This document shows positions 10,056 to 60,019 of a stretch of 64,000 nucleotides of DNA, one piece after another. The stretch lies in NCBI RefSeq assembly GCF_048403405.1, contig NZ_CP183129.1; one strand, written 5' to 3'. Numbering within the stretch: position 1 is the first letter of the stretch; each line of letters opens with the position of its first letter. This DNA comes from Escherichia coli (GTDB lineage Bacteria; Pseudomonadota; Gammaproteobacteria; Enterobacterales; Enterobacteriaceae). A program made the translations under genes and the position numbers. Under the pieces are notes generated by a model, which worked only from the letters and a program-made list of their open reading frames with translations, had not been told where the DNA came from and made no database searches.

Positions 10056-13000
10056 TTATTCCGGGCGCGGCTTCAGCGGGAAGCGGCGGCGCACCAGCAC
10101 AAAGAACAGCGGCACGAAGTAAATAGCCAGAATAGTGGCCGAAATCATCCCGCCCATTACGCCAGTACCCACCGCATGCTGACCACCGGAACCGGCACCC
10201 GTGCTGGTTGCCATTGGCAATACGCCGAAGATAAATGCCAGCGAGGTCATCAGAATCGGGCGTAAACGCTGACGGCAGGCGTGGAGCGTCGCTTCAAACA
10301 GGTCGTGGCCTTTTTGGTTCATCTCGTTAGCAAACTCGACGATCAGGATGGCGTTTTTCGCCGATAAACCAATGACCGTTAACAGGCCCACCTGGAAGTA
10401 AACGTCGTTTTCCAGCCCGCGCATCCAGGTTGCCAGCAGCGCGCCGATAACCCCCAGCGGCACGACCAGCATTACCGAGAACGGCACCGACCAGCTTTCA
10501 TACAGCGCCGCCAGACACAGGAATACCACCAGCAAGGAAATGGCGTACAGCGCCGGAGCCTGCGCGCCGGAAAGCCGCTCCTGATACGACATCTCCGTCC
10601 ACTCCAGACCAAAGCCGTTTGGCAGCTGCTTCACTAACGATTCCATAATATCCATCGCCGTACCAGTACTGACCCCCGGTGCGGCTTCCCCGACAATCTC
10701 TACCGCAGAATAACCGTTATAGCGTTCCAGACGCGGCGAGCCTGTTTCCCAGCGTGAGGTCGCGAAAGCAGAGAAGGGCACCATGCCGCCATCTTTATTT
10801 CGGACATACCAGAGATTAATGTCATCTGGCAGCATGCGATACGGCGCAGCTGCCTGCACATAGACTTTCTTCACGCGACCGCGATCCATAAAGTCATTCA
10901 CATAGCTCGAACCCCAGGCGGTTTGCAGTGTGTCGTTAATATCGTCGATAGCAACGCCCAGCGCCTGAGCTTTACGCTGGTCGATATCAATCTGCAACTG
11001 CGGACTGTCGTCGAGGCCGTTATGGCGCACACGGGTTAGCTCCGGGTTTTCCGCCGCCAGCGCCAGCAACTGGTTACGTGCTGCCATCAGCGCATCGTGA
11101 CCTGCTCCAGCGTGGTCCTGCAACTCCATATCAAAACCCGCAGAACTGCCAAGACCGCTAATTGCTGGCGGGCTGCTGGCGATAACGCGAGCTTCTTTAA
11201 TCTTGTTAAACGCCTTCGTTGCACGCTCGATAATGGCAAACGAGGTGCCGGTCTTACTGTCGCGTTCGCTCCAGTCTTTCAGGCGGATAAACATTCGCGC
11301 CACGTTTTGCCCGTTACCCCCAGGGCCAGAACCAACAGTGGCAAACACCGACATGATGTTGTCTTTTTCATGGGTGAAGTAATATTTCTCGATTTGCTCA
11401 ACGACTTTCAGGGTCTGTTGTTGGGTTGAACCGCTGGGCAATTGTACCGAGGTAGTAAACATGCCACGGTCTTCCAGCGGTAAGAACGACGTCGGCAAAC
11501 GCAGGAACAGGAACACCATGCCGCCAAGCAGCAGGACATAAATCACAATCCAGCGCAGGCTGCGGTGGAGAATTTTCGCCACCCCTTTTTCGTAGCGTTC
11601 GGCGTTGCGGTTAAACATCTGGTTAAACCAGGCAAAAAAGCCTTTTTGCCCGTGATGCTCACCCTTTTTCAGTGGCTTAAGTAGCGTGGCACACAGAGCC
11701 GGAGTGAGGATCATCGCTACCAGTACTGACAGCACCATCGCCGCAACAATGGTAATAGAGAACTGGCGATAGATGGCACCGGTGGTGCCGCCGAAGAAGG
11801 CCATTGGTACAAATACCGCCGAAAGCACCATCGCAATCCCGACCAGTGCCCCCTGGATCTGCCCCATCGATTTACGTGTGGCTTCGCGAGGAGTGAGTCC
11901 TTCCTCACTCATAATACGTTCGACGTTTTCCACCACCACGATGGCGTCATCCACCAGCAGACCGATCGCCAGTACCATTGCGAACATGGTTAAGGTGTTG
12001 ACGCTGTAACCGAAGGCGTAAAGTACGGAGAAGGTTCCCATCAACACCACCGGCACGGCGATAGTGGGTATCAGCGTGGCGCGGAAGTTTTGCAGGAACA
12101 GATACATAACGAGGAAAACCAGAGCGATAGCTTCCAGCAGCGTTTTCACCACGTCTTCAATGGAGGCTTTAACAAACGAGGTGGTTTCATACGCCACCTT
12201 GTATTCCAGTCCGTGCGGGAAATACTGCGCCAGCTCGTCGAGACGATTGAGCACCAGCTCCGCTGTCGCCATTTCGTTCGCGCCGGAGGCCAGTTTTACC
12301 CCCAACCCGGAGGCTGGCTTACCATTGAAGCGGCTAAGATAATCGTATTTCTCCGCCCCCATTTCGACGGTGGCGACATCGCCCAGCCTTACCTCTGAGC
12401 CGTCCTGATTCACCCGCAAGGTGATATCGCGGAACTGTTCTGGTGTTTGCAGCAGTGACTGGGCGTTAATGGTGGCGTTGAGCGCCTGCTTATCGACGGA
12501 AGGCGTACCACCAAGTTGCCCAACCGCAATCTGCGCGTTCTGTGACTCAATGGCATCAGTGACATCTTTAGCCGTCATCTGGAAACTGTTGAGTTTCGCC
12601 GGGTCCAGCCAGATACGCATGGAATATTGCGAACCATAGGCATCGATATCCCCAACGCCATTCACGCGGCTTAACGGATCCTGAATATTACTGGCAACGT
12701 AATCGGCAATATCCTGTTTATCCATCGAACCATCGGTAGAGACGAAGGCAATGGTCAGAATGTTGGTATCGCCGGTTTTACGCACCGTCACGCCCTGATT
12801 TTGCACTGCCTGCGGTAACTTTCGCATGGCAGATTGCAGCTGGTTTTGTACTTGCTGCACGGCTTCGTCCGGATCGGTGCCTGCTTTAAAACTTAAAGTG
12901 ACAGATGCCTGACCGGTGCCGCTGCTCTGAGATGACATATACATCAGATTATCGAGACCGGTCATATTTTGCTCGATAACCTGGGTCACGGTGTTTTCCA

Positions 13001-13169
13001 GCGTCTGGGCCGATGCGCCGGGATAGTTAGCGGTCACTCGCACATTCGGTGGCGCGAGATCGGGGTATTGTTCAACGGGCAATGAAAAAATCGCCAGGGT
13101 CCCTGTCAGACACAACAGGATTGCCAGCACCCAGGCAAAAATGGGGCGATCAATAAAGAAATTCGCCAT
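10056..13169 (-). CDS. acrD: RND aminoglycoside efflux pump AcrD
   Basis: 1037 aa, [41 protein letters not shown]..., HAE1-family RND transporter (AcrB paralogue). Confidence 0.93.
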
Positions 13170-13239
13170 TAAAAGAGGACCTCGTGTTTCTGCGTATCGT
13201 TGTAGGCTTGACTTGCTTCACTGTAGCGGCAAGGTACGA

Positions 13240-13257
13240 GCCAATCGTGGAGAAAAA
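13240..13257 (-). promoter_or_regulatory. BaeR box-like site upstream of acrD
   Basis: Minus-strand reading TTTTTCTCCACGATTGGC, matching the BaeR consensus TTTTTCTCCATDATTGGC at 17/18 positions, about 70-90 bp upstream of the acrD start. Confidence 0.6.
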
Positions 13258-13332
13258 AAGGAGTTAATGTAAATTATCATGCCCTTTTATACTGAACCTT
13301 AAGTGCCAGTATTCTTTGGTCAGTCGGAGGCA

Positions 13333-15033
13333 TTACATCAGCTGGCTTTCCTCACCCTCCGCGGAGCGAAAGCTAATACTCACTAACGTGCCGCCGCCGG
13401 AAGGTTGCGAAAAAGTCAGCGTCCCACTCAATCTTTCCGCGCGTTCACGCATGATATTCAGACCATAATGGCCTTCGGGTTCTTTCGGTTCACCGATGCC
13501 AATCCCGTTGTCGCGAATATAGACTGTGTGATTGCCATCCGGCGCGGTGACGCAGCTAACGGCGATTTCGCTGGCGTTGGCGTGCTTCATCGCATTCAGC
13601 ACCGCTTCGCGAATAATTTGCAACAAATGCACCTGCATTTGCGCATCCAGCGCCAGGGTTGGCAGACGGCAGTCGAGGGTCAGTTTGGCGCTGGTTTGAT
13701 TTTGTAACGTATCCAGCATTTCCCTCAACGCGGAGGGGAGATCCGCCTGCTGCAGCGTCAGGCGGAAAGTAGTTAACAGCTCGCGTAACTGCCGATAAGC
13801 ATCATTCAACGCCTGGGAAAAATCGGCCATGATACTTTGTGCGGTGGCATTATCTTCCGGTATCGAACGCTTCAGTAACGTCAACTGGATACGTAAGTAA
13901 GAAAGTACCTGAGCCAGCGAGTCGTGCAATTCGCGGGCGATGGTCGCACGTTCTTCCATCAACAATAACTGCTGAAAATGCTTCTGCGCCTGATTAAAGT
14001 ACAAACCGCGTCCCAGCATCGACGAAACGCTATTAAGCAGCGGTTCTGATGATGAAACGTGACTATTTTGCCAGTGCAGTTCGCCGTAAACCGTCTCTTG
14101 CATTGTCACCGGTAAAATCTGCATCGGCAATTCCGGGTTTGGTTGCCCTTCGCTAATCCGCCAGTTTTCACCGACATTTAACTCCAGATATTCAGCCGCT
14201 TCATTGTCGCGAACAATCTGCAAAATATGGCGGAAACAATGCACATCAATCTGGCTGGTGTTCAGCGCCTGCGAACACTGATACAACACCTCCAGACGAC
14301 GCTTGGCCTCGTGGAGATCGCGGGTCTTTTCTTCTACTGACGCCTCCAGCGAACGGTACAATTTATGTAGCTCGCTCGACATCTGGTTAAAGGTTTTTGC
14401 AAGCAGGCCAAGCTCATTCGGCAGGCTGGTATCCAGCGGCGGCGAGTCGAACTGCCCGTGTTCAATACGCTGACTGGCGGTAACCAGCTGATTCAGCGGG
14501 GCAACCACCTGATGGCGTATGCGGCGCAAAGTAAAAAAGACCAGCGTGAAAATACCGATGCCGCCAGCCAGGGAAATTGCCACCACCAGCAGCATTTTGC
14601 GTTCAGCGTAGTGCTGTAAAGCCAGCACGAACAGGTCTATCTGATTAACATAATTATTAATATTGGCCTGATACCACGGCAAGTCGCCCTTGCTGAGCCG
14701 ATTATTCATCTCCAGCCAGTTGGCATTCAGATGCGCATAGCGGGTTTTTACTGCTTCTGGCACATACCAGACGTTGAGATTGGTTAATACCGGTGAATGC
14801 AGTGCCTGCTGAAATAACTGGCGATGTGCATTGAGTTGTGGACTGCCACTTTGCAAGTCGTAGCCCAGGCGGTAACTCTGCATACGCAGCGATCCGGCAA
14901 TATTGATAGCCTCAGCGTCGCGCAAACTGCTCGCCAGAGTTAGCAGAGCGATACCCGTGGAAAGAATCGACAGCAGCACAATGTAAAAAAAGGCCCGGGC
15001 CAGACTGGCCGAGACGGGTCGTTTAACAATCAC
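13333..15033 (-). CDS. narQ: nitrate/nitrite sensor histidine kinase NarQ
   Basis: Track ORF 13333..15048; I place the start at GTG (complement of 15031-15033) giving MIVKRPVSASLARAFFYIVLL... (566 aa); HAMP and HisKA_3 (ELHDSLAQ) / HATPase domains. Confidence 0.9.
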   Translation of the reverse strand: MIVKRPVSASLARAFFYIVLLSILSTGIALLTLASSLRDAEAINIAGSLRMQSYRLGYDLQSGSPQLNAHRQLFQQALHSPVLTNLNVWYVPEAVKTRYAHLNANWLEMNNRLSKGDLPWYQANINNYVNQIDLFVLALQHYAERKMLLVVAISLAGGIGIFTLVFFTLRRIRHQVVAPLNQLVTASQRIEHGQFDSPPLDTSLPNELGLLAKTFNQMSSELHKLYRSLEASVEEKTRDLHEAKRRLEVLYQCSQALNTSQIDVHCFRHILQIVRDNEAAEYLELNVGENWRISEGQPNPELPMQILPVTMQETVYGELHWQNSHVSSSEPLLNSVSSMLGRGLYFNQAQKHFQQLLLMEERATIARELHDSLAQVLSYLRIQLTLLKRSIPEDNATAQSIMADFSQALNDAYRQLRELLTTFRLTLQQADLPSALREMLDTLQNQTSAKLTLDCRLPTLALDAQMQVHLLQIIREAVLNAMKHANASEIAVSCVTAPDGNHTVYIRDNGIGIGEPKEPEGHYGLNIMRERAERLSGTLTFSQPSGGGTLVSISFRSAEGEESQLM

Positions 15034-59257: not shown

Positions 59258-60019
59258 TTACCGCCACATCGCGTGTTTATCGCGATAGCAATCGACCCAC
59301 ATCGCCGTCGCACCACAAACGGCAACGGGCATGATGAACAGATTAAGCAGAGGGATCATCGTAAACAGGCTGGTTAAAGCACCAAACTGCATATTGGTGA
59401 TTTTGCGTGTGCGCAGGGCGGTGCGCATCTCTTTAAACGGCACTTTGTGGTTATCGAAGGGGTAATCGCAATACTGGATGGCTAACATCCAGGCGCTAAA
59501 CAGGAACCATAGTACCGGCGCGACGGTTTGCCCAATACCAGGGATGAAGTAAAGAATTAGCAATACAATTGCGCGCGGCAGATACCAGGCAAATTTTTGC
59601 CATTCGCGTTTCATGATTCGCGGCACATCTTTCATGATACCGAAAATCCCGGTATCTGGCGGTGTAGCGCCAGTCAATCGTGCTTCCAGTTGTTCAGCCA
59701 ATAAACCGTTAAACGGAGCGGCAATCCAGTTAGCAATCGTTGAGAAGAAATAGCCAAACACTAACAGCACGGAGATGACTGCCAGAGGCCACAACAGATA
59801 GCTCAGCCATTGTAACCAGTCCGGAACATAACTCATGAGAGTCGGGATCCAGACATCGAGTTGCGTAAATAGCCACCAGAATGCGCCCCCCATCAACAAA
59901 ATATTGACCAGCAGCGGTAAAATAACGAAACGCCGAATCCCAGGTTGCGAGACGAGCTTCCAGCCTTGCGCAAAATAGTAAAAACCGCTGCGTGGGGCAG
60001 ATGTGAATGATGAAACCAT
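59258..60019 (-). CDS. cysZ: sulfate transporter CysZ
   Basis: 253 aa polytopic membrane protein, [31 protein letters not shown]... Confidence 0.9.

Follow-up and report, generated by a model that had tools for sequence, protein, structure and literature searches.

The narQ-acrD spacer

The window analysed here is a 64-kb stretch of Escherichia coli DNA in which the efflux pump gene acrD and its neighbour narQ, both on the minus strand, are separated by a 163-bp chromosomal spacer. Inside this spacer, at 13257..13240 of the minus strand, stands the 18-mer TTTTTCTCCACGATTGGC, embedded in the minus-strand reading ...ACATTAACTCCTTTTTTTCTCCACGATTGGCTCGTACC... and falling within a span (13226-13260) for which an earlier note, made from the sequence alone, had claimed a near-consensus recognition box for the response regulator BaeR. 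Box and gene have the same orientation, and 70 nt lie between the 3' end of the box and the acrD ATG (13169). The main features of the locus are as follows.

10056..13169, minus strand: acrD coding sequence, 1037 aa, the putative regulated gene (open reading frame list and annotation of 100% identical genomes)
13180..13183, minus strand: acrD Shine-Dalgarno sequence GAGG (CACGAGG block conserved 10 nt before the ATG)
13240..13257, minus strand: BaeR box of the published type, 18 bp, TTTTTCTCCACGATTGGC (17/18 consensus positions, identical to the K-12 acrD site, 28.6 bits in the ortholog-site matrix)
13333..15033, minus strand: narQ coding sequence, same-strand upstream neighbour (carried over from the annotation of NZ_AP022087.1)

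The names acrD and narQ were taken from genomes that are 100% identical across the 801-bp stretch tested (12900-13700). Exact matches to this stretch include strain WP4-S18-ESBL-07 and the O7:H15 strain ST70, and of 5425 E. coli records just 34 reach at least 99% identity over the 801 bp (5372 are at 95-99%), which indicates that the window comes from a minority E. coli lineage. K-12 MG1655 belongs to another lineage, yet it carries the identical 18-mer at the same 70 nt from the ATG, and its spacer differs from ours only by two SNPs far upstream. The genes for the cognate system, baeSR, lie outside the window; 5422 of 5426 complete E. coli genomes carry them, and the source genome almost certainly does too.

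A scan of 13050-13450 detected no hairpin resembling a terminator between the end of narQ and acrD, and the spacer (13170-13332) has no notable fold; thus transcription of narQ might read through into acrD. An RNA-level explanation of the locus was considered and rejected, the spacer folding no better than shuffled sequence (z = 0.68) and the whole window being without an Rfam match.

Match to the BaeR consensus

The BaeR consensus of Nishino 2005, 5'-TTTTTCTCCATDATTGGC-3' as quoted in PMC3915751, PMC11644481 and PMC3799227, is matched by TTTTTCTCCACGATTGGC at 17 of 18 positions, the mismatch being C for T at position 11. The earlier note had used this consensus, naming the mdtA, spy and acrD promoters as its origin. 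Its motif is the same as the one quoted in those papers, and when the K-12 promoters were fetched and their boxes aligned (acrD TTTTTCTCCACGATTGGC, mdtA TTTTTCTCCCTTATTGGC and spy TTTTTCTCCATAATTGGC), majority rule over the three reproduced exactly TTTTTCTCCATDATTGGC. This origin also limits what the score is worth, because the K-12 acrD site, identical to the one in our window, helped to define the consensus; the 17/18 match is therefore circular and not independent evidence.

The three K-12 boxes have 15 invariant positions in common, TTTTTCTCC-N3-ATTGGC, as well as their orientation with respect to the gene and the presence of CTCC-type copies farther upstream. They differ in the central triplet, which is CAC/G in the acrD box, and in distance to the ATG (mdtA 53 nt, spy 138 nt, acrD here 70 nt). 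A second BaeR consensus, TCTNCANAA (Yamamoto 2008, as quoted in PMC3799227), includes a CTNCA element; TCTCCACGA fits it at six of its seven specified positions, with CTCCA present. The CTNCA element is common to both published consensus sequences.

A motif scan found TTTTTCTCCACGATTGGC to be the sole consensus match in the 64-kb window even with up to three mismatches tolerated. At the one-mismatch level 0.016 matches are expected per 4.9-Mb genome, and simulated windows gave one such match in 1000.

Conservation across genera and within E. coli

When species-representative genomes were scanned, 80 AcrD-ortholog loci were obtained; they belong to about 27 named genera, which span Escherichia, Citrobacter, Salmonella, Klebsiella and Enterobacter through to Buttiauxella, Cedecea and Erwinia; 79 of these loci include upstream DNA. 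A box-like sequence occurs in all 79 promoters, usually 68-74 nt before the ATG. Its core, TTTCTCCACG(A/T)TTG, is nearly invariant, with 1.5-1.7 bits at each of the ten consecutive positions of TTTCTCCACG, and the C at box position 11 that departs from the consensus is kept in 78 of the 79. The least conserved parts of the 18-mer are its extremities, namely the two 5'-most T's (0.7-0.8 bits) and the 3' GGC (0.8, 0.1 and 0.3 bits).

In a MAFFT alignment the narQ side of the spacer was essentially unconserved, and the block 13284..13242 was identical or nearly so in almost every species, a conserved footprint more than twice the length of the 18-mer. Alignment anchored on the core was free of gaps in the 79 orthologs, with no indels between the conserved blocks. 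Three species depart from the usual distance between box and ATG: Kosakonia oryziphila (198 nt), Phytobacter diazotrophicus (91 nt) and Erwinia mallotivora (139 nt), at loci L055, L063 and L081, respectively. The block from the box to the -10 hexamer described below is intact in all three and moves together, so the extra DNA must sit in the 5' leader. One further locus, L045 (CACSKA010000009.1), is titled Chryseobacterium sp. 18061 and nonetheless carries an acrD 88% identical to that of E. coli behind a full enterobacterial promoter block; this record is probably a mislabelled or contaminated assembly.

Within E. coli, 5329 of 5424 records share a 76-nt core (13215-13290) without a single difference and the other 95 have one to three differences, whereas over the surrounding 801 bp identity is only 95-99% in 5372 records. 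At both scales, across the 79 orthologs and in the E. coli population, the box is conserved more strongly than the spacer around it.

A matrix built from the ortholog sites gave the window box 28.6 bits, whereas no off-target site in 631 kb of control DNA scored above 15.3. The runner-up within the window (TTCTTCTCAACGATTGCT, 59732-59749, minus strand, 14.7 bits) was rejected as a candidate: it lies inside a 253-aa open reading frame and scores at the chance level of the control DNA.

These data bear on the simplest alternative, that the box, in an AT-rich spacer, resembles a BaeR site by chance only and is functionless. Shuffled windows do give a match in 12-19% of cases when three mismatches are allowed, but the actual match has a single mismatch, for which 2e-4 occurrences per window would be expected, and the core hardly varies across about 27 genera, unlike the spacer around it. 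We consider the chance of a functionless resemblance to be negligible. Conservation alone, however, cannot name the protein that reads the site.

For Erwinia there is a direct comparison. The Erwinia amylovora acrD promoter was shifted by BaeR in EMSA, and its reported motif, TTCTTCACGATTACTGGC (PMC3915751), lies in front of the orthologous gene and has the core T(C/T)CACGATT in common with the box described here, although its flanks have diverged further and it stands farther from the ATG (~140-166 nt). The Erwinia mallotivora promoter in our ortholog set carries AATTTCTCCACGATTATC.

Architecture of the promoter

Five further elements, all read on the minus strand, are needed to describe the conserved block and its surroundings.

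13220..13225, minus strand: inferred -10 hexamer TACAGT (TA[CGA]A[GT]T 14 nt beyond the box in 78 of 79 orthologs)
13248..13253, minus strand: proximal half-site TCTCCA, with the CTNCA element (in 74 of 79 ortholog promoters)
13259..13264, minus strand: distal direct-repeat copy, ACTCCT here, 11 bp upstream of the proximal one (TCT(C/T)CT in 74 of 79 orthologs)
13266..13275, minus strand: invariant block AATTTACATT, no regulator assigned (TTTACA at fixed distance in 77 of 79 orthologs)
13278..13292, minus strand: published CpxR site of acrD, GTATAAAAGGGCATG (PMC9600279 Table S1)

The assignment of the -10 hexamer draws on its pattern of variation, which among the 79 orthologs is confined to positions 3 and 5; since these two positions matter least in a -10 element, we read TA[CGA]A[GT]T as such. 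A simple promoter scan of 13050-13450 found no consensus -35/-10 pair, and the absence of such a pair fits an activator-dependent promoter.

The distal copy of the repeat may, like the proximal one, serve as a BaeR half-site. At its first base (13264) the window and K-12 carry A, as do 5329 of 5424 E. coli records, and 77 of 79 orthologs carry T; by parsimony the A looks like a derived, E. coli-specific change. Among the set compared, the A-first form ACTCCT was seen only in the window, K-12 and locus L005. The equivalent position is T in E. albertii, E. whittamii, Citrobacter and Salmonella. A repeat finder run on the spacer returned two weak inverted repeats (80-82% complementary) and no direct-repeat family, a TCTCC unit of 5-6 bp being below its resolution.

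TTTACA (13273..13268) stands 20 bp upstream of the proximal hexamer, in the gap left between the published CpxR and BaeR sites, neither of which covers AATTTACATT. Three readings of the block suggest themselves: an UP-like tract, a degenerate third half-site for BaeR, or a half-site for CpxR, with GTAAA on the opposite strand.

With the two 5' T's and the 3' GGC its least conserved parts, the 18-mer as published is probably not exactly the functional unit, as far as can be judged from the comparison of promoters. An alternative that keeps BaeR as the reader is accordingly that the operator is real and its published limits are wrong: BaeR would recognize a TCT(C/T)C(T/A) repeat with 11-bp spacing, possibly together with TTTACA, and ATTGGC would either reflect contact with the polymerase or be a coincidence confined to E. 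coli. The operator would then lie ~7-10 bp upstream of the published box, or up to 18 bp upstream if TTTACA is included. Besides the weak conservation of the 18-mer's ends, this reading draws on the near invariance, in the 79 orthologs, of two elements that lie outside it, the distal TCTCC and TTTACA, and on the other K-12 promoters, where CTCC-type copies are found upstream of the boxes at 10 bp for mdtA (CTCC twice) and at 11 and 22 bp for spy (TCTCCA at 0 and -22, TTTTCT at -11). The TCTNCANAA consensus (PMC3799227) covers the proximal half-site only. Regulators of the OmpR/PhoB family bind tandem repeats (PMC11644481), and the related regulator DzrR uses two direct CTCCAT repeats in the operator of desAB of Dickeya oryzae (PMC10052836). 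That operator resembles the acrD promoter in placing CTCCA(T) direct repeats before the gene of an RND efflux pump, and differs from it in the regulator, reported to act independently of phosphorylation, in the genus and in the pump. The evidence does not run all one way: ATTGGC is invariant in the three E. coli promoters and so should matter at least in E. coli, and E. coli itself has a degenerate distal copy. We regard a misplaced operator as a serious contender, somewhat short of being our preferred account.

The 11-bp direct repeat itself fits tandem binding by winged-helix proteins. The half-site model is suggestive and not proven, because the distal copy in E. coli is ACTCCT and the spacing at mdtA is 10 rather than 11 bp.

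Other regulators at the promoter

Several other proteins have been reported at this promoter. An AtoC target, GTTCAGTATAAAAGGGCATG, with ChIP and EMSA support (PMC3118216), occupies 13278-13297 on the minus strand and overlaps the CpxR site. Of this CpxR/AtoC site, the 3' part (GCATG) alone is well conserved from genus to genus, and the first half poorly. When GTATAAAAGGGCATG was compared with the tandem CpxR box GTAAA-N5-GTAAA it did not conform, fitting GTAAA at 4/5 positions in one half and 2/5 in the other; TTTACA, which is TGTAAA on the other strand, supplies a perfect single GTAAA half-site with no partner. CpxR enhances BaeR-mediated expression of acrD, and its effect depends on BaeR (PMC2731931). 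EvgA and SdiA have also been reported at the acrD promoter.

Probable BaeR control of acrD

BaeR belongs to the OmpR/PhoB family and binds as a dimer (PMC11644481). Its regulon is small and includes acrD (PMC12046405; PMC3160322), and BaeR-dependent induction of acrD is reported in PMC12046405, PMC2731931 and PMC3160322. PMC2731931 and PMC4846824 list acrD among the few reported BaeR binding sites, and PMC10052836 describes regulation upon indole exposure as direct and dependent on phosphorylated BaeR. For E. coli itself, the evidence of binding at acrD drawn on here consists of secondary citations of Nishino 2005/2007 and Hirakawa 2005. A box at this place is already known from published work and curated lists of the regulon, and the one in our window is identical to that of K-12.

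Against this stands one genome-wide study. Under ethanol stress, ChIP-exo gave BaeR peaks at mdtA and spy and none at acrD; acrD also fell outside the BaeR iModulon, and the authors called its regulation indirect, observing as well that induction conditions differ between studies (PMC7657598). On such an account the conserved block would be read by RNA polymerase, as a promoter core or UP-like tract, by CpxR or by some other regulator, and its likeness to the mdtA and spy boxes would not mean that BaeR sits at acrD in vivo. Both ChIP-exo and iModulon results favor this, as do the reports of CpxR, AtoC (PMC9600279, PMC3118216), EvgA and SdiA at the same promoter and the 3' part of the box, which in most genera reads TTGnnn, including the -35-like TTGACA and TTGACC. 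That TTG is only 13 nt from the conserved -10, however, too close for a sigma-70 -35; the 15 positions in common with mdtA and spy, the two strongest BaeR targets, go far beyond chance; and binding or direct regulation is given in several papers (PMC2731931, PMC3915751, PMC10052836 and PMC4846824), whereas the ChIP-exo condition was ethanol stress only. We judge indirect control to be improbable.

The reading that we prefer takes the region of TTTTTCTCCACGATTGGC as the operator through which BaeR acts on the acrD promoter, and we hold it with high confidence. The box shows each of the sequence features of a BaeR operator that were tested, namely the consensus, the CTNCA element, a same-strand position upstream of a regulon gene and conservation; sequence, position and conservation come from the present analysis, and binding and BaeR dependence from the literature. 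The earlier note had gone further and placed envelope-stress control directly in front of the pump gene. In this the conserved box, the identity with K-12 and the published work bear it out, subject to two qualifications, the missing ChIP-exo peak under ethanol (PMC7657598) and the weak conservation of the 18-mer's ends.

Proposed mode of action

In the mechanism that we propose for this operator, envelope stress (indole, copper, zinc, tungstate and others) would activate the BaeS kinase, and phosphorylated BaeR, a response regulator of the OmpR/PhoB winged-helix type, would then settle as a dimer on the box region. Its contacts would most likely be the two tandem TCTCC-type half-sites 11 bp apart, at 13264..13259 and 13253..13248. 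With TACAGT (13225..13220) as the -10, transcription would start near 13213, and the half-sites would fall at about -51 to -35, over the missing -35. Half-sites in that place suggest class II, PhoB-like action, and BaeR would thus be an activator of this type, recruiting sigma-70 RNA polymerase. CpxR, just upstream, would boost the effect of BaeR.

The pho box of PhoB is the familiar example of such an arrangement. Tandem operators of the OmpR/PhoB family are ~18-22 bp long, with direct repeats one helical turn apart placed at a missing -35, and the promoters depend on the activator. The geometry that we infer for the acrD promoter is like that of the pho box, and the half-site sequence is different.

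A more specific proposal takes in the whole conserved footprint. Control of acrD may be exerted by a rigid composite of ~43 bp (13284..13242) comprising the TCTCC repeat with its 11-bp spacing, shifted upstream with respect to the published box, TTTACA as a third contact (a BaeR or a CpxR half-site) and, in E. coli, the T-to-A change at 13264 as a weakening of BaeR binding. We put this forward tentatively, as an account that we think rather unlikely to hold in all its parts. If it were true, the derived T-to-A change would explain why ChIP-exo gave peaks at mdtA and spy and not at acrD, which is speculation.

What the comparative analysis adds is a modest refinement of the register of the operator and a possible reason for the conflicting in vivo binding data in K-12. 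These are of interest to specialists in two-component regulation and leave the overall picture unchanged: the site ties the Bae envelope-stress pathway to the AcrD pump for aminoglycosides, beta-lactams and metals, a link established since 2003-2005.
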